From: Parcubacteria group bacterium GW2011_GWA2_40_143
Lineage (GTDB): Bacteria > Patescibacteriota > Minisyncoccia > UBA9983
Assembly (NCBI GenBank): GCA_000996035.1
Contig: LBYH01000001.1
Coordinates: forward strand, 21,676-85,675
Length of the DNA stretch: 64,000 bases
Direction of reading: 5' to 3'
The position numbers were made by a program, and so were the translations under genes. A model generated the notes under the pieces. The model was given only the letters and a program-made list of their open reading frames with translations. It was not told where the DNA came from and made no database searches. Numbering within the stretch: position 1 is the stretch's first letter; every line of letters starts with the position of its first letter. Shown here piece by piece: positions 1,974-63,992 of this stretch.

Positions 1974-4900
1974 TTATTGCACTGGCGTATGATAATATGT
2001 TACCACAATTTTCGCCGAAAGGGCGGTAATATTGGTGCTTGCGTCAACAACCGTCACTTTGAGTGTATTGGAATTGGTCGGGTTTGACGGAGTGGCTATA
2101 TTCAAATCAGAAGCTGAAACTTCATGAATGATGGCAAAAGGTGTCGTAGCGCCGGTTGCCGTTCCTACCGTATAAGTCGCGGCTGTTGCCGAATTAACCT
2201 GAACTGTTACTTGCGATGGCGGCGCGGAATCAGTGGAGAAAACTCCCGTAATTTCCACAAAAGCGCTCTTAATATTATATCCGCTTTCCGGAATCTGCGC
2301 GGTAAAAGTTTGAGAATACTGGCCATCGGATTGGTTCAATGCCGTCTGTTTGGATGTTACGAAAAATTCAGTAGTTCTGGTTTCCGCCTTGCTCGTGGTA
2401 AAAGTACAAGAAGTGTCGCCGCCCAAGCCATAACCTTTGCTTGTTTCATTCCCCGCCTCGTCTTTTGAACGCGCTCTGTAATAATAAACCGTATCAGGAC
2501 TTAAGCCGGTGAGTATGATTTGCTGAGGGTCGCTGTTGTATCCGGAACTTGGCGCGCCGCAAGTTTCATTGCCGCTTCCCTGCGAACAAACGGAAGAAGT
2601 AAAATTCGTCGTGGTGCTGTATTGAACTTGCTTCGTGAAAGTTGAGGACATAGCGTCTGTAAGATACCAGATGATAGTCGCCCCGCCGGCGGTCAAACTG
2701 CCGTGCATCGGGCAAGAAGTGGTTATGGCCGGCGCCGTCGCGTCTATGTAAAAATCCACATCGTTTGGATCCGTATTCCCGCCAAAAGAAACCCAATCGC
2801 TCGGATAATCACCGGTGCCATCACAAGCGGATGTGTGCGTTCCGCCTTTATTGTGGCAAACTCTGGCTTGCCAATGATATTGGGTATTAGTGGAAAGAAC
2901 GGTTGAAACTTGCCCCGTGGCAGGACCCGGGCCGGCTTGTCCCGTGCCTTCCGCCGTTACCGCGTTGGTAAAGGCCACGCCCACCGCTTTGGCTTCTATC
3001 TGCGGATAAAGAGTTCCGCCAGAAACTGAAGCTTGCATTGTCATCTGGAAATATATAGTGGTGGAACTGGCCGCCCCTCCAACGCTTATTGAATCCGTGT
3101 AGCCGGAATTTTTGAATTGATCGAGGACGGACGGGTTGCTAGGAGTATTGGAAAGCAAGGTTAAGTTTAACGCGTTGGAATCATATCCGTTTGACTTAAC
3201 AACGACATTTCCAGAAGCGGCGCCGGTCGGCACTTTTACATTAACGCCAACCGTGGAAGAATCTCCGTTCGCCCAAGTATTAAGCAATGTCGCGTCAACG
3301 GCATTGTAAAAAGTTATTTTATTGTCCGCGTCAAGCGCGCCCGGGCAGCTTGCCGCGCCGGCTTGACACAAATGATTGCCGATAATTTCCACATTATCAC
3401 CCACAGCCGGATTAACCGGATTAAATTCCGTTATCTTCGGCAACACCCTAAACCCATTGGAATCGTAAGCATTATCTTCTTTTGAACCGGTATCGGCGGC
3501 TCTGGTGATTTTAATATCTCCGAGATAAACATTATCCGCTATTGAGGTAGGAACAACCACGGTAATGGCGGTATCAGACCAAGTAACATCAACGGCTGGA
3601 ACGAGAATGTCGCCAAAATTACCGATAAAATTAACCGCGCCTTCCGTAACTCCGAATCGTTTGCCATCAATGTTGATATTATCAGCTTCTCTGGCTTGAG
3701 TGGGTATATTGGTAACCTCCGGGTAAATATAAAAATCTCGTCTTGCATCATCTTGTGTTCCTCCGACAGTCGCCAACAGGCCTTTTCCTGATGCCGCTGT
3801 TCCTCCATAAGTGGTTACTTGAGTTGACGGAATAGTCGCTGAAATAGTGGTGTTGTTGGCGTTGTTACAAGTGAGAGTTGTGCCTTCCACTTGGATTGAT
3901 ATAGAACCACAAACCGTGCCGAAGCCGGCGCCGGTGATCGTAATATTTTGACCATTCCTTGCGCCAAGATTATTTAAAACAGCCTCGCTAATGTTGTCGT
4001 AGGAAGTAACATTTGGACGGATAGTGGTGGAGCCGGAAAGCTGAACCGGATAGGTTCCCGCTTTAGTTGTGCCGTTTTGCAAAGTAAAATCTGTTGAACT
4101 GGTTATTTCCAAATCAATCGCCTGCCCGCCAACAGCACCCATCGCAATATCAAAAACGACATAAACGCAAGTGTAATTACTCCCAACCGTCACCGGTATG
4201 CTTAAACCCGAAAGCGTCATTTTGTCTGTCGTAACATCAAAAGTATCACTCACTAATGTTTCAGTTCCATTATACGCGCAAGTAGCAACTCCGCTTTCGT
4301 ATCTTATGCCCGCGTTAGCGCTTAAATTCGCGTTCGCGTTCACAGTGCCGGCTTCGGAAATAGTCAAAGCAGTAATAGTATCTGCGCTTCCGCTTGTTTG
4401 CTGAAAAGTAAATGCCGCGCCAACATATTGACCGGTGGCACCGGAATCAAGATTGACTGTTTGCGTTCCGCTTGAAGCCGCCGTAACTTGCGGTGGTGCT
4501 GATGTCGTCCCAGAACCCGCAGTACTCAAACCTGTTTGATCTCCATCCTCGTTTTTCGCTTTTGATTGAAAATCATATAGTGTGCCAGCTGTTAGTCCGT
4601 TGATAGTTAAGCTGGTAAGTTGCGTATCAGTTAACCAAACTTCGGTCACTGAAGCGTTACCTAAAGCATTCACCCATTTGCCATTCCAGTTGGCATCAGC
4701 AGTAGTAACCTGCACCGCAAAATTAGTTACGGGATTAGAAAGAGGGTTTCCATTTTCGTTGTTGGTAATAACAAGAGTGGTTTCAGTCGGAGAACCAACA
4801 GCCGGCGCAGTCGGCGTGTTAGCAGAAGTATATAGAGTAGTAATACCGGAATATCCGGTCTCGTTTGGAGTGCCAGCGTTGTCGCGCGCCTTTACCTTAT

Positions 4901-7900
4901 ATCCATAACATTTGTTTACCGAAAGCCCTGTGTCGCTATAAGTAGTGCCTGCCTGCCATCCACTATCCGCCGCACCTATGCCGACATTTGCACCAACACA
5001 AGCAGTGGTATCCAAAGCGAAATAATAACTAACTGGTGGAGTAGTGGCATCAGTGGCGGTGGTGGCAGTCATATCAATCTGCGTGGCGCTCGTATTTGAC
5101 GGAGCCGTAGCAAAAGTCATTGGGTCGGGTGTTGGAGGTGTGGTGTCATTGGCAATAGTAAAAGTCAAGCCATTGCTTGTATATGGACTTCCCCCTCCTG
5201 TAGTAACCGTTACACTGTATCCGCCATTGGTTAGCGTTGGAGCATTAGCGATGATTTCAATATGAGTAGGTATGCCTGTAACTGTGGCATTAGCAGTTCC
5301 CCACTTTACATCATTACCATCGTCGGGAGTAGTGTTGAATGTAACGGCGGAGGGACAGGCTCCTGTTTGACACAAGTGATCGCCGGCAATAGTAGTGGAT
5401 TGACCGTTCGGACCGGTATTTGGTGTGAGTGAAATAATTCTTGGTAAAATTCTAAATCCATCTGCCGAATATGCTAACCCTGTTTTGGAGTCAGAATTTC
5501 TGGTAATTCTAATATCGCCAAGATAAATACTGTCGCTCAAAGTAGTTGGCACAGTGACGGTAATAGAGGTATCTGACCAAGTAATACCACCTGTGGCAGG
5601 AACAGCAGCGCCGAAACCACCGACAAAATCAATAGTGCCTGCAGTAGCTCCAAAGTGATTTCCACCAAAAGTAATACTGTCGTTTTCTTTGGCCGCATCG
5701 CCACCGGGCCAGCTGGTGATTTTAGGAAGGATGATAAAACCAGCGGAATTATCAGATAAGGTATTGTCTCCTTCTGTTCCTTGATAGGCGACAACAGTAA
5801 CCGAGTTGTTGGCGTCATTAATAGCTGAAGGTACCACTGCTTGAATAGAAGTATCTCCCCAAGTTGATATTGTTGCCGCTACTCCATCAATAGTTACCTT
5901 GTTAGTTCCTTGAGTTGTGCCAAATCTTGTACCGGTAATAGTAACAGTGTCGCCTTCTTTTGCTTCACCTACACCAGAGGGAGAGATGGAAGTAATATCT
6001 GGATATACTTTGAACGATAGAGGTGTGGTGTCCGCTTGAGAGTTAGCGGTAACTGTAAGATTGTTTCCATAAACGGTGATGGCTGATGGAATATTGAATG
6101 TAATAGAGGCAGCTGACCATGCTGTAACATTAGCAGTTGGTATTTGATAAGTTCCCACCTTGACATTGTTGGTGGCAGTAGAACGGTTAGCCGCTCCCGG
6201 ATCAGCTCCGAAATTAGTACCGGTGATGACAATGGTTTGACCAACTCTCGCTCCGAGATTATTCAATCCCGATTCAGTGCTGTTGGTGAAAGAGGTGGCG
6301 TTGGGTGGCGTCGCCGCAGGCGTAAAAGTCCCAATAGCAACCCCGACATCATAGTTGCCATTGGTATCACGGCTGAAAACTTTGTAAGTGTAGGCCTGTC
6401 CATTAGTCAAAGCAGTAGTAGTACAACCAGCACTTCCTCCTGTACCATCAATCTTGCTTTGAACAGCGGAAGCAGTGGAGGAAATGACACAAGCGACAGT
6501 GGCAGTGGTAATAGTGTTACCGGCAGAATAGGCCGAGCCTTCGGCTGGGACTTCAGAACCAGCAGTGCCAGAAGCCCAACGGAGAACAACGGAACCAGAA
6601 GTGGTATTAAAATCAGCAGAGTTAGAAGCTGTCCAATTGATAGTGTTAGCAGTATCTCCGGCTGTACCAGAAACAGAAGTGGCGCCATTAGGTGAAAGGT
6701 TATCTAAAGTCATAGTAGCGCTACCAGAGTCAGTGCCCGCTTGTGTAGCATTGCCACTGGTAAAGCCAGTCACTGTGGCAGTGATAGCATACGAAGCGCC
6801 AGGAGGAACAGGCATAGAGCCGTGTGCTTTAGCCGTTAATTTAATTTTGAATTGAGTGTTAGTGATAGAAACAGGAATACCACAAGTAGAAAGCGAAGCG
6901 GAGTCGCCAGAAGGAGTTGCGGAACAATAGGTTACTGTGTCGCCGTCATTAGTAATCGCCACTGTTTGAATATATTGCCCCATACCAGCAGCGATGCCAA
7001 TAGTGGCGGCGGTAACTGTGTCAGTACTACCATCTGTTTGCAATCCAAAAGAATCAACCAAAGCCGATGCTCCGGGAGCGATAGTGGCATTAGACGGCTC
7101 GGCTGTAACGAAGTTTGAGATGGTTGTGATGTAGGAAGGCGCGGAAGTCGTACCCGAGCCCGCCGTGCTCAAAGCCGTTTGGTCGCCATCCTCGTTTCTC
7201 GCTTTTGATTGAAAATTATATAGCGTTCCTCCTGTTAGTCCATTAACCGTCAAGCTGGTAAGCTGTGTGTCAGTCAGCCAAACTTCGGAAACAGAAGCGT
7301 TACCCGTAGCATCAACCCACTTACCATTCCAGTTAGCATCAGCAGTAGTAACCTGCACCGCGAAAGAGGTGGTTGGATTAGAAAGAGGGTTTCCATTTTC
7401 GTTGTTGGTAATAACAAGAGTGGTTTCAGTCGGACTGCCCACCGTCGGCGCGCTCGGCGTGTTGGCTGAAGTGTAAAGAGTGGTAATGCCAGAATAACCG
7501 GTTTCATTTGGAGTGCCGACGGAATCGCGCGCTTTTACTTTATAGCCGTAACATTTGTTTACATCAAGACCAATGTCGCTGTATGTTGTGCCTGCCTGCC
7601 ATCCGCTATCAGCGGCGCCGGCGCCGATATTAGCGACAACACAAGAAGTAGTATCCAAGGCAAAATAGTAACTGACTGGCGGTGTCGTGGCATCAGTAGC
7701 AGTAGTCGCTGTCATATCAATCTGCGAGGCGCTCGTATTGCTCGGCGCCGAAGCAAAAGTCATCGGGTCGGGGGTGGGCGGGGTCGTATCAGCAGGTGGT
7801 GGCGCCGGTTTTAGCGCGATAGACATCATTGCCTTATAGGTATTTGTTGATACAGTAACAGCAGTTGCCCCATAATTTCCAGCCGTTACTTTTTCTCCGC

Positions 7901-36621: not shown

Positions 36622-37707
36622 CTACTCTCCCGCCAACTGACCGCAAGCGGCAAGAATATCTTCCCCGAAAGAAACACGCTGAGTTACGGATACGCCAAGC
36701 TTTTTAAGCGTGTCAAAAAAAACGTCTCGCTTAGCCTTGAGCGATGGTTTATATGTTCCGCCAGTATCATGATATTTAATGAGATTTACATGATACAGAT
36801 GCCCTTTCATTAGCTTGGCAAGTTCATACGCGTCTTCTCTGCTGTCATTTACCCCATCTATAAGCAGATACTCAAACATTACTTTTCGGTTTGTTTTTTT
36901 AATGTAATTATCTATGGCGGTCATAAGAGCGGCGATCGGATAAACTTTATTTATAGGCATAAGTTTTGTTCTTATTTCGTCATTGGCGCCGTGCAGAGAA
37001 ACAGCGAGATTTATTTGCAATTTTTCTTCCGCAAATTTCTTTATGGCCGGCGTTATGCCGCAAGTGGAAATTGAGATATGCCTTATGCCAAGATTAAAGC
37101 CGTCTTTGTCGTTTAATATTCTTGCAGCTTCCATTACATTATCGTAATTTAAAAATGGCTCGCCCATGCCCATAAAGACAATGTTGTCTATGGCATTGCG
37201 ACCATCAATGCGACCATCAAGGGGAGTCCTTGATATCAAGGACTCCCCTTGATGGTTTTCAGACTTCAAATACCGCGCAAAAAATAAAACTTGTTCAACA
37301 ATCTCCTCGCTTGCAAGATTGCGTTTATAGCCTGCCTTGCCGGTGGCGCAAAAACCGCAAGCCATGGCGCAACCGGCCTGAGAAGATATACATACGGTAT
37401 TGCGGCCGACCACTTGTTCTGAGCCGGTCGCAAGATGCTTCATCAGCACGGTTTCTATTTTTAAGCCGTCACTCGTCTCAAACACCACTTTCACGGAATC
37501 ACCTTTTTTTGATTCAAGAGTTTTTATGTTTTTAAGACACGAAAAAGCAAATTTTTCATCCAGACTGTCGCGCAAATCTTTCGGCAAAAATTTTATATCT
37601 TGCCAGCTCGTTGCCAAATCCACAAACACCGCCTTCTTAATTTCTTTAAGACGATAAGGTTTGTGGCCATTTTCAGCCAAAAAATTTTCTATGTCTTTAA
37701 TATTCAT
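36622..37707 (-). CDS. rlmN: Radical-SAM 23S rRNA/tRNA adenine-C2 methyltransferase RlmN, carrying an in-frame REP-derived insertion
   Basis: CAMACGFCATG (Cx3Cx2C), GMGEPFLNYDNV, C-terminal CGQLAG. The segment HQGESLISRTPLDGRIDGRNA is encoded by two abutting palindromic repeat units at 37213-37256. Confidence 0.9.
   Translation of the reverse strand: MNIKDIENFLAENGHKPYRLKEIKKAVFVDLATSWQDIKFLPKDLRDSLDEKFAFSCLKNIKTLESKKGDSVKVVFETSDGLKIETVLMKHLATGSEQVVGRNTVCISSQAGCAMACGFCATGKAGYKRNLASEEIVEQVLFFARYLKSENHQGESLISRTPLDGRIDGRNAIDNIVFMGMGEPFLNYDNVMEAARILNDKDGFNLGIRHISISTCGITPAIKKFAEEKLQINLAVSLHGANDEIRTKLMPINKVYPIAALMTAIDNYIKKTNRKVMFEYLLIDGVNDSREDAYELAKLMKGHLYHVNLIKYHDTGGTYKPSLKAKRDVFFDTLKKLGVSVTQRVSFGEDILAACGQLAGE
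37213..37256. repeat. REP-like copy 1: two abutting, oppositely oriented units (CCATCAAGGGGAGTCCTTGAT + ATCAAGGACTCCCCTTGATGG) inside the rlmN coding sequence, in frame
   Basis: Same 21-bp core as the 51-54 kb cluster. The ORF stays continuous across it. Confidence 0.8.
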
Positions 37708-47519: not shown

Positions 47520-50500
47520 TTAATATTCTATTTCCTCTCCCTCTATCGTCGCGTTGCCGGAGATCTCGCTGCCTCCGGCAACAACCACTCCTTCGTCGGA
47601 GACATTTTCTATTGTTACATCAGACAAAGTAGCTGAAGAACCGTTGTATAAACCGATACCATCTCCGTCCAATATGTCGCTAATGGTTGATGTCGCGATT
47701 GTGATAACGGAATCGTAAGAGCCTATACCATCGCCATCTAAAACATTCGTTATCGTGGAGCTGGCTATGACAATAGTTGATTCGTAAGCGCCTATGCCAT
47801 CGCCATCAAGAACCGTATCTATGGTGGTTGAAGACATTGTCAACGAAGAATTATAAACGGATACCGCGTCCGCGTCTATGGTATTGGTTATCGTGGAAGA
47901 AGCAATGGAAACGGAACTTCCGCTGTACGCCGCAATCGCTTCATTCGTGGTACTGGCAAAAGTGGTATTTTCAATTATGACCACGCTATTATTATTCAAT
48001 TCAATGCCGGCGTTATTGCTGATAAATTCCGAATCGGTTATTTCCAGATCGGCTCCATTGCTTAGGCTTATACCTCCCGTATTGGAGATTATAACGTTAT
48101 CTAAAGTGCTCGTTCCATTATTGCCGCTAATTTTTATTTTATTCGCAGTTGATGTGTCTGAAAAAGAATCAAAGACTATCGGATTGTTTTCTTCTCCGTT
48201 AGCGTTGATGACGCCATTGACTTCAAGGTCATCTAAGTAAAGGCTCACTTGAACGCCGGACTCAATGGTGAGAGTTGAAGTGGCTGAGACTTGAACATTT
48301 TGGGAAACATAGTAACAACCACCTTCTTCAAGAGTGATGTCTTGATATATGCTTTGGCCGTTGTTGAGATTATTAAAGCTGACGGAATTACATTGGCCGG
48401 GCGTGCCGGAGATGGAATTGCCTTCGGCATCTTGTCCGCTTTTAATGAAATCAATGTTCGTCCCCCATGTGGCCCAATTGGAAGTATCAGATCCGGACTC
48501 TTTGGAGTTTACTCTCTCCATAGTCTTTCTGGAAGTGGAACTTGTATTATCTCCGGCGGACCATCCGTCGGTTGCGACAGGAGTTCTGTCTAAAGTGGTG
48601 GATGAGTGAGAGAGAATGATTTGTTCTCCATTGTTACCAAGCGCCCACTGAGATGACCCATTGCCATAAACGGAAACAGTTGATCTGGCGGTTATTGTGT
48701 TTGCCCTTCTTTCAAGAATGCGATATTCATAAGGAGCCATTTCTCCGACAAGGGCGATAAACGGCGCGCCGTCAGTTGATTCTACTGCCCATTGCGACAA
48801 ATCTAGCGTATAACTTGTATTGTTTTTTATTTCCAGCCATTCATCATACGCGGAAGCCGCCGTTCCCATCCACGCGATTTCGTTGATAGCGAGAGGAATG
48901 GTGGCGACAGAAACGGCTTGAGTAGAAGTGGCGCTTGTCGTGGCCGAAGAAATTGCCGATACAGAAAAAGTGTACTCGGAAAAATCGGAGATGTTGGCGA
49001 TGAAGCTCGGTGCCGTCGTGGTAGCGTATTCTCCGTTCTTACTTATGGCGTAATGTTCCGCGTCGGAAACCGCTTGCCAAGAAAAAGTTACGGTGGTGGT
49101 GGCAAGAAGACAGCCATCGGTAGCCAAAGAGTAATCGCATTGGGAAACACTAAGGATTGGCGCGGAAAGTGAAACTGTTTCTTGCTCATCCTCTTCTTCC
49201 TGATCTTCTTCTTGCTCGGATTCAGAGACAAGAGAAACTTTTGGCGCCGCCCCGCCGCCGAAACCGGAATACGGAAGACCTAGAAAAATAATGCGAGGCT
49301 GATTGTCAGCCTCGCTCTTATCAAAATCTCCTAAGGAACGAGACGCGCTAAAATCGGCGCGTCTAGCAGTATCATCCTCATCAGTTGATTCACTCTTTAC
49401 AAGATTCAACACCGCTTGTTTTTTCTCACTCTCGCTGTCTTTCTTTTTCTTATCCTCTTCCACTAACGCCATGGTTTGCTTTTTAATATCTTCCAGGGAA
49501 GCTTGAATTTGAGTGATTGAAGCGGAAAAACTCAAATTTGAGAAAGACTCCGCCGCCTCGGAAACCACTGTATCAAAAACCGCTAGATCAACGACTTCGC
49601 TTACCTCATTGTCAAGGTTCAACCTTGACAATGAGGTAACAGCCTCCACCGCCACAGCCAAACCATCGCCATCTTTCGGCGAACGACTCGCCTCAAGAGA
49701 AAAAATATCGGTAATCTTGCCAGTCAAGCTTGACGCGACACTTGCGATCTTACTCGCGCCGGCAGAAATATTTTCTTTAACGGAATTATAAGAATCTTTA
49801 GCAAAGGCAAAAGCTTTGGCCCCTTCACCCACAACAGACACTCCGCCAATGTAGCCGTTTAAAGTAACGATTTTCTTAATAACTCCATTTTCTTTAACAA
49901 AAATTTCCGGTGCCGGTTTTTGGCCGGCTATTATTGCCTCCGCTTCTTGATGAAATAACTCTATCAGGCCGGCACCATTTATAATAGCTTCGCGAGAGAG
50001 ACGGGAGAAATATTGAGAAAGGATTTCTGTTTCCTTTTTGGTTTCCAAAAGATATTCTTTTTTTAGATTAAGAAGATTATCAGGAATAGTTCTTGCCCTA
50101 ATAAGCTCAAACTCCTCTCCATTCTTATCCAACCCATAACCAAAACTTTCATCTTCTCTCACTATTTTAGGATTAGCATATTTAGGATCGTTTATAGTGT
50201 CTTTGCTAAAGAAATATCCATTGGAATAATTAGCCAAAGCGTAAAAGTAATTATCCACCTCGCCTCTTTGGATAGGAGTCATGCCTTTGACTGCCAACTC
50301 GTCAGCCACCTTAAAATTCTCTCTGGTAAAATCCTTGGCGTATTCCTCCAGCGGACTGCCGTAATCGCCGGTAATCGTTCTGGCCTCATGAGCGTGCGGG
50401 TCGTCTCTGGTGTGGTCCGGCACGGCCATATCCTCCATCAAGTGCAAAGTATGGCCGAGAGTCGCATACGCTTCTTTTTTATTGCCGTTTGCGTATTCAT

Positions 50501-51396: not shown

Positions 51397-51432
51397 AATT
51401 TTATCACACCAAATTTTCTAAAACAACCCCGC

Positions 51433-51469
51433 CCCCCACCATCAAGGACTCCCCTTGATGGTGGGGGTA
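51433..51469. repeat. REP-like palindromic element, copy 2 (CCCCCCACCATCAAGG-ACTCC-CCTTGATGGTGGGGG), inside an approximately 80-nt MITE-like unit at 51402-51483
   Basis: Perfect 15-bp arms. The core is shared with 7 other sites. Confidence 0.8.
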
Positions 51470-51475
51470 ACTTTT

Positions 51476-52249
51476 CTAGCTTTCGCCGGGTTGGAAAATC
51501 TCCTTTAACGCCCAAGGAGCCATAAATTCTTGGATCGCTGAAATTGGAATATCTCCGAATATAGAAAAAGGGCCTTTGTCTTCATTACTATAATCAACTC
51601 CGACGCAGGAGGCCGAGAAAGCTTCCCGTTTCGGGGCAAACATCAAATCACAGCTTGGTTCTCCGTCATATTTAGAAAGCAGCAGCGGTTTCATTATCCT
51701 TACCGCTTCCGCCCAAGCCAAATCATCGCGAAACAGTTCGTTTCCCTCTCTCATCATTTCGCCCTTTTCAAGATCGAAAATAAGATATGTTCGCTTGGGG
51801 TCGCTGGCTTTACTGCCAGACAAATGGTCTGATGATGTAAAAGCCATGGAAATCAAACGCGGAGACATAAGCAATATTTCCGTATCTATATTGAGAGTGC
51901 TTGCTTCCCCGTTATCATCGGCGGCGGTTCTGACACCCCGAATAAAAATATCCTTCAACGCTCCGATATATCCAGCAACATCCTCGTTAATTTTTTCGGC
52001 CAAGAAATCATTGGTGTAAATAACCACATCGGGAATCCTTAAACTTATTAAGAACTTTTTTGGTTCATCCTCTATGGTAATTTTTTGCCATTTTATGACT
52101 GGCTGACTTAATTGCTTTACCACCTGAGAAACCTCTTCTTTTTTATTCCAACGCGGAGTAAATGCTAAAAATGAAATCGCGATAATTATCCCAAAAATCA
52201 CTGCGATGGCTTTTGAAAAAAATTTTCCAGACATAAAAATATCAATCAA
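51476..52249 (-). CDS. Hypothetical exported protein (DUF3298/DUF4163-like, RsiV-type fold suspected)
   Basis: 257 aa. N-terminal transmembrane helix. Weak resemblance to DUF3298/DUF4163 blocks. Low certainty. Confidence 0.45.
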   Translation of the reverse strand: MIDIFMSGKFFSKAIAVIFGIIIAISFLAFTPRWNKKEEVSQVVKQLSQPVIKWQKITIEDEPKKFLISLRIPDVVIYTNDFLAEKINEDVAGYIGALKDIFIRGVRTAADDNGEASTLNIDTEILLMSPRLISMAFTSSDHLSGSKASDPKRTYLIFDLEKGEMMREGNELFRDDLAWAEAVRIMKPLLLSKYDGEPSCDLMFAPKREAFSASCVGVDYSNEDKGPFSIFGDIPISAIQEFMAPWALKEIFQPGES

Positions 52250-52422
52250 TCACCTTCAAAACACCGACGCTTCTTTTATCAACTCGGAAAAATTTTTCAA
52301 AGGCTTTAACCTCGACCCTAATATCGCGCCCAACAGAATTACCGGCGTATTTTATTTTTGTAAAATTTAGTTGAATTGATTTTATCACACCAAATTTTCT
52401 AAAACAACCCCATTTAAACTCT

Positions 52423-52478
52423 AATATTATACCACACCCACTGTCCAAATATGCCATCCAAGGGTAACCCTTGGATGA
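52423..52478. repeat. REP-like palindrome, variant copy 3 (…CATCCAAGGGTAACCCTTGGATG… with outer arms CCACACCC/GGGTGTGG), inside a second MITE-like unit at 52382-52498 that shares the flanks of copy 2
   Basis: The flanks TTATCACACCAAATTTTCTAAAACAACCCC (5') and TAACTTTTCTAGCTTT (3') are repeated at 51402 and 52382. Confidence 0.7.
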
Positions 52479-52572
52479 TGGGGTGTGGATAACTTTTCTA
52501 GCTTTTTCTAATGGAAAGATAACCAATCATCTATCATGGTGCTAAAGTCTTGTTGAGTTAAAAAATACTCAG

Positions 52573-52621
52573 GAAAAGTTTCCTTGCTTAGCACCACCAT
52601 CAAGGGGAGTCCTTGATGGTG
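52573..52621. repeat. REP-like palindrome, copy 4, with 22-bp arms (TTGCTTAGCACCACCATCAAGG-GGAGT-CCTTGATGGTGGTGCTAAGCAA), overlapping the 3' end and stop of the RAYT gene
   Basis: The transposase C-terminus LLSTTIKDSP* is encoded by the repeat. An approximately 25-nt stretch (AAAAATAYTCAGGAAAAGWYTCCTTG) is duplicated at 52562-52586 and 52676-52700 on either side of it. Confidence 0.8.
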
Positions 52622-53286
52622 GTGCTAAGCAAAAGCCAATCGTTTATAAAATCATCAAAATCTTTGCGATTTGAAAAATATTCAGGAAAAGACTCCTTGT
52701 TAATAATCTTTCCCTCCGGCCTGTTACCGTTTTCGCTATAATCAAAATAACTTGAATAAGAATACTCGTTCAAAAAAGAACTAGCTGTGTTTTTATTTTT
52801 AATGCCACTTTCTTTCCATTCCGGCTCTATTAGTTTAACTGGATTTAAATGAATATAGGCAAAAAGATATTTTAAATACTCATCATTATCCGCATGAGTT
52901 GACTTAAAAACCCCTTGGAATAAAGCCCCCGTCCTATTATATCTCTTATTAAAATACATTGAGTATCCTGTAGCCAGCTTGCCCATAAATTTACTGATGC
53001 CTTTTTCTTTTTTCTCTTTAACAAGAAGATGGAAATGGTTAGGCATCAAACAATAAGCTCCAATATCAACAAGAGAGTCTTTTTTATTTATGTTTAATAT
53101 CTTCATCAAGGACTCCCCTTGATTTATGAGGTTGCTTATGTGCACAACATCAACATTGTTGGAAATATAAAGCAAAACAAGAAACCTTAAATAATCGGCT
53201 TTGTCCGAAAAAATATCTCTTTTTTCGGTGCCACGATTGTAGATGTGATAATATTCACCAACAGAAAAAACTATTTTTCTTTCCAT
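52600..53286 (-). CDS. IS200/IS605-family Y1 (HUH) transposase, REP-associated tyrosine transposase (RAYT)-like
   Basis: 228 aa. EYYHIYNRGTEKRDIF (N-terminal beta-strand block), HUH motif YCLMPNHFHLLV, RYNRTGALFQGVFKS…YLFAYIHLNPVK (compare RAYT …GIWQRRFWEH…YIHINPLKHG). Flanked by inverted REP copies (copy 6 lies 14 nt upstream, copy 4 overlaps the stop). A partial REP copy is in-frame inside the gene. Confidence 0.8.
   Translation of the reverse strand: MERKIVFSVGEYYHIYNRGTEKRDIFSDKADYLRFLVLLYISNNVDVVHISNLINQGESLMKILNINKKDSLVDIGAYCLMPNHFHLLVKEKKEKGISKFMGKLATGYSMYFNKRYNRTGALFQGVFKSTHADNDEYLKYLFAYIHLNPVKLIEPEWKESGIKNKNTASSFLNEYSYSSYFDYSENGNRPEGKIINKESFPEYFSNRKDFDDFINDWLLLSTTIKDSP
53104..53123. 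repeat. REP-like partial copy 5 inside the transposase gene, in-frame (encodes NQGESL)
   Basis: CATCAAGGACTCCCCTTGAT. Translated on the minus strand it gives LINQGESLM, the same peptide core as the rlmN insertion. Confidence 0.7.
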
Positions 53287-53300
53287 GCTTTTATTTTAAG

Positions 53301-53335
53301 ACACTTATCCCCAACCATCAAGGACTCCCCTTGAT
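53301..53335. repeat. REP-like palindrome, copy 6 (CCCCAACCATCAAGG-ACTCC-CCTTGATGGTTGGGG), immediately upstream of the RAYT gene
   Basis: 15-bp perfect arms. Opposite core orientation to copy 4. Confidence 0.8.
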
Positions 53336-53354
53336 GGTTGGGGATGTTATAAAT

Positions 53355-54083
53355 TTATTGGAAGTTTTGAAGAAGATTTTGGAGGTCTTGGGATGTGTCT
53401 GGGTTGGCGGCGATGCCTTGTTCTAGAAGAGCTTTGGCTTTGGCTTCGTCTTTGAGAAAATTTCTATAGAAATCATAGAAATTGCGGTAAATGAAAATCA
53501 TGTTTTTACCATTTTCTATCGCCTTTTTATAACTCGCTTCCGCTTTGGTGTTGTCTTTAAGATAATAAGCGTAAAGTTCTCCCAGATTATTGTATGATAC
53601 ATAATTATCCGGACTTATTCTGCCAACGTAATTCCACACGTCCGCCGCGCCTTGATAATCGCCTATTATTTTCCAATATATCCCGAGCACCAGCCAGTTT
53701 TCCACATTTTTCGGATCCTCTCTGAGGCTGGTTGAGATTTCATTGATCTTTTCCATCGCTCTTTCCGCCAAGACTTGGTCTATGCTACTTATCGGTTGAG
53801 CGACTCTATCTAAGAGAGTGGCGCCTTCGCTATCAAGCTTTTTTTCTTCCTCTATTTTTATGGGACTAACTTTAAAATCACCATCGCCTTCAATGGCTAA
53901 ATTTGACCCTTCTATAGTCTTAATGGTGGAAGAGGCGGATTCTATATCTTCGGCAGCATTCTCCTTTGAGTTTAAAGCTAAATCCGAACCGGACTTAGTA
54001 AAGATATCTTTGGATATAAAATAACTTACTCCGCCGACCATAAGCAAGATAAAAATTATAAAAATCAGTTTGTTTTTATTCAT
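53355..54083 (-). CDS. TPR-repeat protein, membrane-anchored
   Basis: 242 aa. N-terminal transmembrane helix. Tetratricopeptide-like helices (…WLVLGIYWKIIGDYQGAADVWNYVGRISPDNYVSYNNLGELYAYY…). Confidence 0.7.
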   Translation of the reverse strand: MNKNKLIFIIFILLMVGGVSYFISKDIFTKSGSDLALNSKENAAEDIESASSTIKTIEGSNLAIEGDGDFKVSPIKIEEEKKLDSEGATLLDRVAQPISSIDQVLAERAMEKINEISTSLREDPKNVENWLVLGIYWKIIGDYQGAADVWNYVGRISPDNYVSYNNLGELYAYYLKDNTKAEASYKKAIENGKNMIFIYRNFYDFYRNFLKDEAKAKALLEQGIAANPDTSQDLQNLLQNFQ

Positions 54084-54136
54084 AGTACTTACATATTAAA
54101 TAATTCCTTATCCTGCGTCAAACCTCGTCATCAAGA

Positions 54137-54211
54137 CCATCAAGGGGAGTCCTTGATGGTGGGGAGTTTTCATTCTTAGTATGTCCGTATCCAAGGACTG
54201 TCCTTGGATAC
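54137..54211. repeat. REP-like copies 7 (ACCATCAAGGGGAGTCCTTGATGGT, 54137-54161) and 8 (variant GTATCCAAGGACTGTCCTTGGATAC, 54187-54211) in the intergenic region downstream of the surface-protein gene
   Basis: Palindromes read directly from the sequence. Confidence 0.75.
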
Positions 54212-54311
54212 TTTATGTTGGGTAAAGATAGAAAATACAAAAACCCCGTTCTCTTACGAGAACGGGGTTTTTGCTAACCTCCCGCTAAAAGCGAGACACA
54301 AGATGGTTAGA

Positions 54312-57300: not shown

Positions 57301-57956
57301 GTGCCTGTCGGAACGGTTGTGATGACACTTGAGCAAGACTGGCCCGTCGTCGAGCTGAATCCTGTCGCTGAAGTACAACCTTCAGGGTATGTCGTTGTGG
57401 TTGTGGCGCAAGACTGACCCGTTGTCGGGCTGAATCCTGTCGCTGAAGTACAACCTTCAGGGTATGTCGTGGTCGTCGTGGTCGTCGTGGTCGTGGTCGT
57501 GGTTACTGAAGCCGCCAACGAATTGTACTTGGCTTGCGAAACCGAGCCAAAGTATCCTACCGCCGGTGATACGCCGTTGGCTGATTGCCACGCGGCCACC
57601 GCTGTTCTCGTTACCGGTCCGAAGTATCCGGTTGATCCTCCCGAGAATGTATAGTGCCCCGTGCTTTTCAAATAATCCTGCAAGCATGTTACGTCACTTC
57701 CTTGTGAACCTATTGTAAGGCTCTTCGTGAAGGCGCATTCTGCAGTTGCAGTGCCGCCAGTCGCTGTGCCAAGAGCGGCAATCTCAGCTTGGAGCTGCGT
57801 TATCTGCGCAAGCAACTGAGCTATTGTCTCTTCCGTAGTAAGAGCTGACGCCGTTTGAGGCGCGGCCATTACTCCAACGGAAAGGGTCAAAGCGGTTGCG
57901 AATCCAAGAACTACAGAAACAACTTTTCCTAATCTGGTATTTCTAATGTTACTCAT
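54312..57956 (-). CDS. Large (1214 aa) cell-surface protein with an N-terminal peptidoglycan-binding-like domain (PG_binding_1), poly-Thr linker and beta-rich repeats
   Basis: Signal/anchor. …GSQGSDVTCLQDYLKSTGHYTFSGGSTGYFGPVTRTAVAAWQSANGV… is a PG_binding_1-like block. Then TTTTTTTTTTTTT and two YPEGCTSATGFSxTTGQSC repeats. The remainder is Thr/Ser/Gly/Ala-rich. Confidence 0.75.
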   Translation of the reverse strand: MSNIRNTRLGKVVSVVLGFATALTLSVGVMAAPQTASALTTEETIAQLLAQITQLQAEIAALGTATGGTATAECAFTKSLTIGSQGSDVTCLQDYLKSTGHYTFSGGSTGYFGPVTRTAVAAWQSANGVSPAVGYFGSVSQAKYNSLAASVTTTTTTTTTTTTTYPEGCTSATGFSPTTGQSCATTTTTYPEGCTSATGFSSTTGQSCSSVITTVPTGTGLAVASPTQPVATLAPESAARVPFTKVTLTAGADDVTVTGINIERTNLGSDSNFSGIVLLDENDTQLGLEKTLNSNHQATVGDTFTVKAGTSKTMTIAGNMAADNSTRAGQIVALTINGINTSATVSGILPITGAVHTINATLSIGSVPTLAVGSIDPGSGQNKEVGTTGYTFSSVKFTTGSAEKVRFNSIRWNQSGSAATSDIENVKTYIDGVAYDTTVSSDGKYYTSTFGSGIVVDKGGSIEMSIKGDIVSGSGRTIDFDIYKRTDVNVVGETYGYGITPANGATDPTDDTGAFSSANPWFDAYQATVSTGSLTITKATSVSAQNIAENVSDVTLGGFEIEAKGEAISVAQQVYHFQITSTAGQVEDITNIALFDSNGNIVAGPADGSGAAVYGTVTFTDTVTFPIGKGTYTLKGKLGTDFANNQTVVASTTPSSDFTSITGQTTGNSITPSSAVVTGNTMTVKAAALAISVSTNPAAQTVVAGAQEFTFANYIFDATASGEDVKINSFPFAYEKFGNTATNLNNCVLYDGSTALNTGSNVLSPTSSSASSTTFTLDNPLTISKGTAKTISLKCNIVAGATGTYAWGYDSEALPTVTGVTSGQSAALTENDSTGQAMALTANGTLTVTENTSQSPAANAVAASGSTVTLGVIDFTSANEAIELTYLGLTLTNTASSSVSDLSQVTLWDGSTQVGTLILTGSTGTSTILTNTDGTSKFIIGKDETKSMTVKADLAAIGTSQVGTQGALIAVDYIGAGNAQGRGSSSGTTITSTSGATSFSGVRMFKTFPTVVRLSGIESSLSGTTDETIMGFSITADSAGKMSLYKLSFNIATTGVTADSLNVYAYDSYSNGSFTGPISGINSGGKLMNTDVDLEANWASASTDLEIYPQISTASTTIEIPAGATRYFKVVATITGVSSGDSLTVTLKGDNAYPSLAGLVDNYVNIEAAATAANNFIWSPRATTTTNSINDYDWINGYNVTSLPSGGISYTKSK
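57353..57505. repeat. Tandem duplication (two copies of about 80 nt) followed by a (GTCGTG/GTCGTC)n microsatellite encoding the poly-Thr tract
   Basis: CTGAATCCTGTCGCTGAAGTACAACCTTCAGGGTATGTCGT occurs at 57353 and 57433. GTCGTCGTGGTCGTCGTGGTCGTGGTCGTGGTT follows. Confidence 0.7.
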
Positions 57957-62141: not shown

Positions 62142-63152
62142 ATGGCATTCACGAAAAAAAGCGCCAAGGCGCCAAAAGAAACAAACATCGGCGTGGAAAA
62201 CGCCTTAAAAGACATTAAAGCCAAATACGGCGAAGGATCAATCATGAAGCTTGGTGAAACACCTAAGGTAAATATTGGCGCCATATCCACCGGCTCCTTG
62301 AGTCTGGATATCGCCCTTGGCGTAGGTGGCATGCCAAGAGGCAGAGTGATAGAAGTTTACGGTCCGGAAAGCTCCGGCAAAACCACGCTCGCCCTAAACG
62401 TAATAGCCCAAGCCCAAAAGAAAGGCGGGGTTTGCGCCTTCGTGGATGCCGAACACGCTCTTGATCCGGAATATGCCAAAAAACTCGGCGTTAAAATAGA
62501 CGACTTGTTGGTGTCGCAACCGGATAATGGAGAACAAGCTCTTGAGATTACGGAAAGTCTGGTAAGAAGCGGTGGCATAGATGTAGTAGTGATAGACTCC
62601 GTGGCCGCTCTTACTCCAAGAGCTGAGATTGAGGGAGAAATGGGCGCTTCTCACGTAGGCTTGCAAGCCAGACTTATGTCGCAAGCGCTAAGAAAGCTTA
62701 CAGCCATTACCGCCAGGTCTCATACTATCGTTATTTTTATAAACCAAGTTAGAATGCAAATAGGCATAATGTTTGGCAATCCGGAAACTACCCCGGGCGG
62801 CAAGGCCCTTAAATTCTACTCTTCCGTGCGCGTGGAAGTAAGAAGAGCGGCGCAGATCAAAAAAGGTGAAGAGGTGGTGGGCAACAGAGTAAAATGCAAA
62901 GTGGTGAAAAATAAAGTGGCGGCGCCGTTTAAAATAGCCGAATTTGATATTGTATTTAATGAGGGTATATCCTACGAGGGCGATATACTAAATCTTGGGG
63001 AGAAATACGAAATTATAAAAAAATCCGGCGCTTCCTATTCCTACGGCGCCACTTCTCTTGGACGCGGCTACGATAAAGCTAAAGAATTCTTGAAAGAAAA
63101 CCCAAAAATAACTCAAGAGCTGGAGAAAAAAATAAAAGAAGCGGCGGCATAA
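62142..63152 (+). CDS. recA: Recombinase RecA
   Basis: …[51 protein letters not shown]…, RecA loop L1/L2 regions present. Confidence 0.95.
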
Positions 63153-63195
63153 AAAAAGTCCGCAAGATTAACCATTAATATCTTGACAAAAAAAT

Positions 63196-63534: not shown

Positions 63535-63566
63535 CTCTATCTCCGCGGTAAACATACGCTGTTCAA

Positions 63567-63625
63567 AATAAAAGAAGCGGCGGCATAAAAAAAGTCCGCC
63601 TTGAAAAACAGCGGACTCTAAGATA
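63567..63625 (+). terminator. Second copy of the recA 3'-end 35-mer followed by a hairpin (AGTCCGC-N11-GCGGACT). Probable original recA terminator, now displaced downstream of the ASCH gene.
   Basis: AAAATAAAAGAAGCGGCGGCATAAAAAAAGTCCGC is present at 63128-63163 and again at 63567-63600. Only the second copy is followed by the stem. Confidence 0.5.
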
Positions 63626-63922
63626 TTTTAAAAATAGAATTTAACTTAAAATAAACGATTTTTAAGGTCTTTTTCAACGACCTTGTTGTCAACATTTCCC
63701 CAAGATAATGCTCTGATTAACCATGAGCAAGATTTTAAGGTTATACAAAATAAAGAAAAAAAGACGTTTAAAACTCTCATACTAACACTGATTTTGGGCG
63801 GTTTGGGCGCCCAAGTCCATCCATTACTGTTTTTCATCTTTCCTCTCCTTTATATAATAAGGAAAAAAATAAAGTACGATTTTATCTGATTCAATAGTAA
63901 ACCAAATTATTTAAATAAGCAA

Positions 63923-63992
63923 GAAATAAAGTGGCGTAAATTAAAATTTTGAGACGCGTCTCAAAATTTTAATTTACGCCACTTTATTTCTT
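63923..63992. repeat. 70-bp perfect palindrome (AGAAATAAAGTGGCGTAAATTAAAATTTTGAGACGC|GCGTCTCAAAATTTTAATTTACGCCACTTTATTTCT)
   Basis: Read directly. 35-bp arms with no loop, centred on GACGCGTC. Confidence 0.8.

Follow-up and report, generated by a model that had tools for sequence, protein, structure and literature searches.

Research on repetitive extragenic palindromic (REP) elements and their REP-associated tyrosine transposases (RAYTs) has dealt almost exclusively with Proteobacteria, and by definition such systems are extragenic. In the REPtron of Escherichia coli, a single resident gene of the Y1/HUH type is bracketed by the genome-dispersed palindromes of the REP and bacterial interspersed mosaic element (BIME) family (Nunvar 2010; Ton-Hoang 2012, PMC3333891; structure 4ER8); its product, TnpA_REP, acts on single-stranded REP DNA by binding, cleavage and strand exchange, and needs both a GTAG-type tag and a mismatch in the stem (PMC3333891). 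The RAYT genes of Pseudomonas, associated with REP doublets forming hairpins (REPINs), are vertically inherited in one or a few copies with a housekeeping-like distribution, each paralogue having its cognate palindrome family, whose inverted doublets form long hairpins, and the REPINs, hundreds per genome, are extragenic (Bertels and Rainey 2011; Bertels 2017, PMC5581495). Here we describe a locus of the groundwater organism Parcubacteria group bacterium GW2011_GWA2_40_143, contained in a 64-kb stretch of contig LBYH01000001.1 (hereafter, the window), in which an open reading frame (ORF) for a RAYT-like transposase is surrounded by copies of a short, perfectly paired hairpin. We consider it likely that this locus is a REP/RAYT system of Patescibacteria. 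The original prediction, made from the DNA of the window, had supposed such systems to be uncharacterised in the candidate phyla radiation (CPR), and in agreement with this no description of them was found in the literature searched, a limited collection in which absence is not proven.

The gene and the hairpins in and around it are the following.

52600..53286, minus strand: RAYT-like Y1/HUH tyrosine transposase gene, 228 aa, with PNHFHLLV and AYIHLNPVK
53307..53345, minus strand: 5' REP hairpin, 17-bp perfect stem, loop GGAGT in gene orientation
53105..53123, minus strand: internal REP core, nucleotides 164 to 182 of the RAYT ORF, encoding N55-Q-G-E-S-L-M61
52584..52632, minus strand: 3' REP hairpin, 22-bp perfect stem, loop ACTCC in gene orientation
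52520..52606, minus strand: remnant of an alternative RAYT C terminus (KETFPEYFLTQQDFSTMIDDWLSFH-stop), 29 aa, just past the 3' hairpin

The assignment of the ORF to the Y1/HUH enzymes of the REP-associated kind is supported by motifs, profiles and the fold computed here. The two sequence blocks from which the original prediction had proposed such an enzyme are both present, the HUH motif being H84-F85-H86 and the catalytic tyrosine being Y144 in YIHLNP, and the profile search named there as a refuting test gave 44.6 bits against a cutoff of 23 for Pfam Y1_Tnp (PF01797), over residues 58 to 146. The top NCBIfam model was REP_Tyr_transpos (NF047646), with 49.3 bits, and the NCBIfam IS200 model (NF033573) reached 13.6 bits against a cutoff of 55. 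Among 94 homologues R18, H86, Y144, H146 and N148 are invariant, with H84 and P149 nearly so, and Y144-I-H-L-N148-P149 presents the Y-x3-N-P signature of class 2, that of TnpA_REP (Quentin 2018, PMC6006769). Furthermore, the AlphaFold2 model of the protein (pLDDT 85) had as its best Foldseek match in the PDB the complex of E. coli TnpA_REP with a REP hairpin (4ER8; E 5.9e-6, TM 0.69), the TnpA proteins of IS608, ISDra2 and IS200 ranking after it with E of about 1e-4 to 1e-3; the matches at E <= 1e-3 were 4ER8, 2A6M, 2F4F, 2VJV and 2XM3. The link to 4ER8 comes from the fold search alone; searched by sequence against the PDB, neither the protein nor a 16-sequence profile gave any relevant match. 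A helical C-terminal domain of about 70 aa (approximately residues 157 to 218) is conserved and specific to the family. That family is large, with word-sharing homologues exceeding 7,800 and, at 50% identity, 470 representatives having E <= 1e-30 (6,865 at 1e-10). The named members are nearly all Parcubacteria/Paceibacteria, and the same gene occurs on GCA_000994445.1 and on contigs from Rifle and other aquifers.

The neighbors of the RAYT gene are the same in relatives whose RAYT proteins are 86, 81, 71, 60, 58 and 56% identical to it, namely, to one side, the recA-ftsK block together with a large surface protein and, to the other, an LTD/beta-helix protein with rplJ-rplL. Since the position is kept down to 56% identity, we regard the gene as resident and not as an insertion sequence, and its vertical inheritance in one or two copies per genome is supported: the window holds one family gene plus the C-terminal remnant, some genomes (L169, L012 and L021) hold two, and a single copy at a conserved position was found instead of the several near-identical copies at varying positions that characterize IS200/IS605 elements. 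The remnant matches the C terminus of a 93%-identical homologue (P0001), which indicates that the 3' end of the RAYT gene was rearranged at the hairpin.

The palindromes flanking this gene on both sides (53307-53345 and 52584-52632) belong to a repeat family with the core ATCAAGG-N5-CCTTGAT (7-bp stem arms around a 5-nt loop), which has seven exact matches in the window (37216, 37235, 51441, 52599, 53105, 53317 and 54139) versus 0.27 expected; likewise, the 21-mer CATCAAGGGGAGTCCTTGATG was matched seven times with up to three mismatches and never in 100 shuffles. Together with a related core site at 49611 (two mismatches) and a variant, or sister, core ATCCAAGG-N5-CCTTGGAT at 52456 and 54189, these matches bear out the repeat family of the original prediction, except that the variant copy placed by it at 52423 was about 30 nt off the variant core at 52456. 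Its claim that the copies are concentrated between 51.4 and 54.2 kb holds as well, five of the seven exact cores falling within these 2.8 kb around the gene (binomial P = 3e-6); the assignment of these copies to intergenic regions does not hold for the core at 53105, which is inside the RAYT ORF, and the elements cannot be called strictly extragenic either, two more copies at 37.2 kb being inside rlmN. Most copies lie between co-directional genes. Many have extended perfect stems, in which the differences from site to site are compensated (CCCCCACC/GGTGGGGG, CCCCAACC/GGTTGGGG and GCACCACC/GGTGGTGC), and the longest, of 22 bp at 52584-52632, agrees with the arm length predicted. Folding of the hairpins as single-stranded DNA gave free energies (dG) of -10 to -27 kcal/mol, with z of -4.5 to -10, ranges that leave out the 7-bp internal core and the variant segment 52440-52495. 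In particular, the foot of the 5' hairpin (dG -20.3 kcal/mol, z -8.6) is 20 nt, instead of the 14 nt first estimated, from the RAYT ATG, and its right arm gives a -35-like TTGATG, 17 nt from TAAAAT; the 3' hairpin (dG -27.5 kcal/mol, z -9.5) specifies the C-terminal residues TTIKDSP and includes the TGA stop codon (52600-52602), in accordance with the predicted repeat across the stop.

Three hairpin sites turned out to be fixed in the family: one upstream, about 10 to 60 nt from the start codon (up to about 130 in some relatives), one within the ORF at about nucleotides 160 to 190, and one at or directly past the stop codon. Their occupancy in the window and in seven relatives, designated by locus, is as follows.

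Window: upstream loop GGAGT; internal (nucleotides 164 to 182) GGAGT; stop ACTCC
L047: upstream GGAGT; internal GGAGT; stop GGAGT
L048: upstream TCGGA; internal TCGGA; stop TCGGA
L050: upstream CGGCG; internal CGGCG; stop CGACG
L170: upstream GTGAAGGT-CGG-ACCTTCAC; internal the same; stop loop CCG
L168: upstream GAAAGGA-CGG-TCCTTTC; internal the same; stop, a long palindrome containing AAAGGACGG
L175: upstream ATCCAAGGG-GTC-CCCTTGGAT; internal the same; stop loop GAC
L169, second paralogue: upstream TGTTCAACAT-TCA-ATGTTGAACA at -43; internal at +166; stop at +655

The stem is constant between the window and each close relative; the loop varies by genome, the three sites of any one genome having an identical loop or its complement. 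In distant homologues the entire hairpin differs and the three sites are kept. The architecture co-varies with the enzyme lineage, the stem types (ATCAAGG, GTGAAGG, GAAAGGA, ATCCAAGG and TGTTCAACAT) differing by compensatory changes. The second RAYT paralogue of L169 (1316-1972, GCA_030697795.1), which is divergent and lies 8 kb from the first, has its own hairpin, unrelated in sequence, at the same three positions, including the one across the stop codon, and the main gene of that locus features GGAAGG solely within the ORF and at the 3' site. Of 20 distinct full-length loci, 16 have a common inner stem in the hairpins on either side of the gene, and 13 contain an internal copy with that stem, counts that are biased because most of the loci were found through the hairpin itself. 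Among the 11 family genes fetched by protein alone, nine have the internal cognate hairpin, the second L169 paralogue being one of these, and in the other two (L171 and L174) the internal copy has decayed.

The internal hairpin leaves its mark on the protein sequence. Residues 56 and 60 of the homologues occur as Q-L (25), E-F (26) or K-F (15) versus Q-F (2), E-L (1) or K-L (0), as expected from C:G, G:C or A:T at one base pair, the corresponding DNA being CAAGG/CCTTG, GAAGG/CCTTC and AAAGG/CCTTT. The covariation score of the internal helix was 0.288 versus 0.133 +- 0.033 in 500 shuffles, none of which scored as high, and slid-register controls gave 0.06 to 0.09; the key pair of the stem is CG in eight distinct sequences, GC in three and AU in two. 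The residues encoded by the hairpin coincide with the least confident internal stretch of the structural model (51 to 60, mean pLDDT 60), between the first helix and the strand preceding the HUH strand, and the 3' hairpin encodes the last residues and the stop codon, TTIKDSP-stop here and TTIKGSP-stop or TTIKATP-stop in relatives. We rejected chance or a recent insertion as the origin of the internal copy, since no homologue lacks the segment and G57 hardly varies. It is either a tolerated ancient insertion that exchange keeps current or a functioning element of a circuit that limits itself.

The remaining hairpins of the window are listed next, the flanking palindrome having been found at two further loci of the 64 kb.

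37213..37256, minus strand: abutting inverted REP doublet, a REPIN-like 44-nt palindrome, in frame in rlmN, encoding HQGESLISRTPLDG
49601..49639, minus strand: 39-nt perfect palindrome with the related core GTCAAGG-TTGAA-CCTTGAC, in frame in a 1134-aa LTD/beta-helix surface-protein ORF
51433..51467, no strand assigned: REP hairpin, 15-bp stem, between two co-directional genes
54136..54160, no strand assigned: REP hairpin, 10-bp stem, upstream of a TPR gene
52455..52477, no strand assigned: variant hairpin of the ATCCAAGG family, whose core also flanks and sits inside the RAYT gene of the L175 lineage
54187..54211, no strand assigned: variant hairpin of the ATCCAAGG family, variant core match

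Outside the window, a strict 23-nt stem pattern matched 39 stretches from genome representatives of the Genome Taxonomy Database (GTDB), among which the genome of the source organism was not recovered; these were mostly from Patescibacteria (Yanofsky-, Taylor- and Saccharibacteria, Minisyncoccia), with loops differing by genome. Genomes of Yanofsky-, Taylor- and Saccharibacteria contain hairpins in which the CCATCAAGG stem carries either TTCAA or TTGAA as its loop. The exact 19-mer with the loop GGAGT occurs in at least 116 groundwater metagenome stretches, corresponding to at least 85 contexts and at least 131 dereplicated sites. Among the matches listed, only one of these contexts is the RAYT locus of the window, 19 stretches have RAYT homologues, 17 of which are only 37 to 55% identical to the RAYT of the window, and nearly all full-length RAYT homologues on 19-mer stretches are bracketed by the core. 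Thus, the repeat is present elsewhere, a point on which the original prediction could have failed, both in rlmN and in these contexts, often near RAYT homologues. The notion of a lineage-specific REP family does not hold for the core, which is common to Patescibacteria with RAYTs 44 to 55% identical to that of the window.

The copies are arranged as singles, as abutting inverted doublets (37213-37256 in the window, L173 and several metagenome loci) and as direct arrays of four, exemplified by L059 (1900-2050; also L082 and L122), with four copies of the 31- to 45-nt unit CCAAATCAAGGGGAGTCCTTGATTTTGATAT. Moreover, L123 features two in-frame tandem copies (ENQGESLISG twice), and L085, L091 and L129 carry one. 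The L059 arrays were considered as CRISPR and rejected, given the 31- to 45-nt period and the lack of real spacers and of cas genes.

Sequence comparisons indicate that the hairpin copies are mobile. The rlmN doublet is part of a 57-nt (19-aa) insertion, and a 91%-identical RlmN orthologue lacks exactly that segment; at the same spot, other RlmN orthologues have hairpin-derived inserts of other lengths and loops (HQGPSLISRTVLDG, HQGPSLM and WQGETLT, among others), and several have none. An 11-of-12 direct repeat, TTGATGGTCGC, adjoins the doublet, and we did not call a target-site duplication because the empty site does not contain this repeat. In addition, the loop of the upstream RAYT hairpin is CGCCG in L148 versus GGAGT in the window, within DNA that is 92% identical, which amounts to a wholesale replacement, and loops are flipped between orthologous sites.

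The alternative that best withstands these data, and that we nonetheless judge improbable, is that the hairpins serve the host in regulation or structure, for example as terminators, mRNA stabilisers or protein-binding sites, maintained by selection and spread by ordinary recombination, the transposase-like gene being merely one of their many carriers. Such elements would be at home between co-directional genes, where most copies are found, and one copy scores terminator-like; nevertheless, no copy has an intrinsic-terminator T-tract in the direction of transcription, and a terminator reading was rejected for the single family hairpin with a T-rich tail, which is on the non-transcribed strand. 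The 100% conservation of the 19-mer at the same codon in SpoU and MiaB orthologues, with flanks 58 to 83% identical, also fits selection, but it is affected by ascertainment, because these loci were found by an exact 19-mer search. What host elements would hardly explain is that nearly every family gene is hairpin-bracketed, with a stem type that follows enzyme lineage and paralogue, that five copies lie within 2.8 kb of the gene, that copies occur inside ORFs and that 5-nt loops are replaced wholesale between 92%-identical strains.

The copies in coding sequence deserve separate consideration. The core is open in four of the six frames (QGESL, QGLPL, SRGVLD and SRTPLD), the other two giving IK(G/D)SP-stop, and it can therefore stand in frame inside genes too; about 18% of 196 core matches in metagenome loci are well inside ORFs of at least 150 aa. 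In particular, the exact 19-mer is in frame in the genes for LigA, MiaB, LeuRS and SpoU (metagenome contigs L118, L063, L162 and L073/L089/L108, respectively). Aligned to solved structures, the LigA copy corresponds to a change from SRKAMD to SRGVLD, the MiaB copy to a change from SRDVES to SRGVLD and the LeuRS copy to a stretch of equal length, in each case with no gap. In SpoU orthologues, the flanks of which are 58 to 66% identical, the same codon carries the 19-mer without any difference, a result that, for loci found by 19-mer search, denotes recurrence or retention at one site and gives no rate. It is possible to hypothesize that the copies without length change arose by hairpin-for-hairpin exchange or by molecular drive.

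Molecular drive is at the center of a further explanation, which seems to us very improbable, namely that the 19-mer is a DNA-uptake-type signal propagated by biased uptake and recombination, like the DNA uptake sequences and uptake signal sequences of Neisseria and Haemophilus. Patescibacteria encode competence machinery, and a signal of this type would explain coding copies without indels, such as the cores overlaying the LigA, MiaB and LeuRS motifs, the occurrence in all four open frames and the presence of the same 19-mer in many species of one habitat. On the other hand, its density away from the gene, about one per 10 to 30 kb, is far under that of known signals, it does not account for the three fixed positions in and around a single gene family or for paralogue-specific hairpins, and the loops differ between very close relatives. 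Just as hard to sustain is the view that the gene and its two flanking hairpins are an autonomous IS200/IS605-type unit whose solo ends are the other hairpins, for, although the protein belongs to Pfam Y1_Tnp, subterminal hairpins are a hallmark of IS200/IS605 ends (PMC3333891) and some genomes have two family genes, the chromosomal position is kept in relatives down to 56% identity, the window has a single copy and a C-terminal remnant only, the IS200 model stays far under its cutoff, the closest fold is TnpA_REP, the two "ends" are one palindrome without distinct left and right, the two L169 genes are divergent paralogues with different hairpins and not copies, and near-identical gene-plus-hairpin units at different positions were not seen here.

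A REP/RAYT system remains our reading of the locus, in agreement with the original prediction, on the basis of the Y1_Tnp score, the best NCBIfam model, the closest fold and the hairpin architecture. With the E. coli REPtron the locus shares the single resident Y1/HUH gene bracketed by palindromes that are probably dispersed in the genome, the closest fold, the class 2 signature and, as in REP/BIME, doublets and arrays of hairpins (37213-37256; L059). With Pseudomonas REPIN-RAYT it shares vertical inheritance in one or a few copies, a housekeeping-like distribution, a cognate palindrome family per paralogue and inverted doublets that form long hairpins. With the TnpA proteins of IS200/IS605 (IS608 and ISDra2) it shares the HUH/Tyr catalytic core and, by analogy, presumably the recognition of DNA hairpins on single strands; different from them, the locus shows no mobile unit and no tnpB, and its flanking hairpins have one palindromic stem instead of distinct left and right ends. 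In-frame insertion, as in rlmN, recalls the palindromic elements of Rickettsia, which reportedly occur in frame in protein-coding genes and are tolerated in surface loops. Those elements measure 100 to 150 bp and have no known cognate transposase; the unit described here measures 19 to 57 nt, is tied to a RAYT and in some copies replaces sequence.

Several observations weigh against a REP/RAYT system, or against parts of it. The hairpins are perfect palindromes without asymmetric tag or stem mismatch, both needed by E. coli TnpA_REP: the GTAG/CGTC tetranucleotide at one foot and the imperfect stem of E. coli-type REPs are absent, and the flank profile of the 131 sites is symmetric (AAW ... WTT), with an A/T-rich extension only and no GTAG-like tag. 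The REP_Tyr_transpos score is under the equivalog cutoff of 80. Copy number looks low, with one to five strict-pattern matches per GTDB representative genome and with five of the seven exact cores in the 64 kb at the home locus; the total is probably in the tens per genome, compared to hundreds of REPINs in Pseudomonas. The cores in LigA, MiaB and LeuRS overlay a conserved motif at unchanged length, for which simple insertion is no explanation. Finally, the two flanking copies are inverted relative to each other in the window, as correctly described by the original prediction, an arrangement that is not conserved in close relatives, and the bias of the hairpin-fetched loci extends to the site counts. 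Other differences from the E. coli system are the added C-terminal domain, the cognate hairpin within the ORF, another one carrying the stop codon, the in-frame copies in housekeeping genes and the Patescibacteria host, and, different from the extragenic REPINs of Pseudomonas, a substantial share of the copies is in coding sequence. In a survey of RAYTs (PMC6006769), a REP located within the transposase gene is not mentioned.

On the model of E. coli TnpA_REP, the enzyme would recognize the short, perfectly paired hairpin formed in single-stranded DNA, cut at its foot through Tyr144 and rejoin the strands, and this cutting and rejoining would spread, swap and homogenize the hairpin copies. Extra copies build up in the intergenic spaces near the home locus, where their clustering fits an enzyme acting close to its own gene; the internal site falls in a tolerant loop (residues 55 to 61), and elsewhere in the genome the copies, whether single, in inverted doublets or in direct arrays, are sparse. 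The enzyme may keep the loops uniform within a genome by swapping strands hairpin for hairpin, and exchange between copies would explain at once the uniform loops, their wholesale replacement, their flips and the updated internal copy. The long site-specific stems may have grown by template switching at quasi-palindromes. Moreover, the three gene-borne hairpins could damp the expression of the enzyme, with the stop codon inside the 22-bp stem and the -35-like box in the upstream arm; these two features are leads only, and for the -35 box a promoter scan gave nine occurrences versus 8.8 expected, at chance level, with a spacing that does not fit in L051. That the ORF-borne hairpin is functional, that the three sites form a self-limiting circuit and that the enzyme exchanges hairpins genome-wide is, taken as a whole, a tentative proposal that we deem rather doubtful. 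If it were true, genome-wide exchange would rewrite 5-nt loops wholesale while keeping the 19-mer identical at one codon of housekeeping genes with flanks only about 60% identical, it would write the core over conserved motifs at unchanged length (SRxxxD in LigA and MiaB), and REP elements would be a force on coding sequence in genomes almost without intergenic space, beyond "extragenic" passengers.

Some other repeats of the window were recorded along with the hairpins.

51398..51430, minus strand: 33-nt exact repeat, equal to 52379-52411, with a 16-nt box on its far side (51468-51483, equal to 52490-52505)

The 33-nt repeat and the 16-nt box enclose two different hairpins, which precede two consecutive genes, and may represent a duplicated intergenic unit carrying a REP; on the transcribed strand, the 33-mer at 51398-51430 reads TTGTTT-N17-TAAAAT with a TG extension and therefore resembles a promoter. 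An Rfam search of 51.0 to 54.6 kb returned nothing near threshold. Two exact 35-nt direct repeats (63129-63163 and 63565-63599), each consisting of the last codons and stop of recA and the first arm of the recA terminator, bracket a 436-nt segment with a small ASCH-domain ORF, which resembles a gene cassette that has been inserted ahead of the recA terminator, the target being duplicated. At the end of the window there is an intergenic 72-nt perfect palindrome (63921-63992; 33-nt arms around ACGCGT), unrelated in sequence to the REP family. A 75-nt tandem repeat (57333-57481; 92% identical) is inside a 1214-aa Thr-rich surface-protein ORF, and a 300-nt direct repeat (4495-4794 and 7138-7437; 83% identical), with copies 2.6 kb apart, probably corresponds to paralogous gene segments.

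What is new here is a large REP/RAYT family in the tiny, tightly packed genomes of the CPR (470 clusters at 50% identity, E <= 1e-30), and a cognate hairpin built into the reading frame of the transposase, with the stop codon within another copy. The extension of REP/RAYT to the CPR is moderately interesting in itself, and the co-varying in-frame hairpin together with the rewriting of coding sequence would surprise specialists. On the practical side, the hairpins will lead to local errors of assembly and annotation in CPR bins, among them spurious stops, chimeric C termini and indels in conserved genes. The co-variation of the stem with the enzyme lineage over hundreds of homologues represents a natural experiment in the co-evolution of a Y1 enzyme and its DNA site, and the hairpin invades housekeeping genes in frame, so that RAYT self-regulation through its own sites, the homogenization of REPs and the shaping of proteins by short mobile palindromes become testable in reduced genomes.

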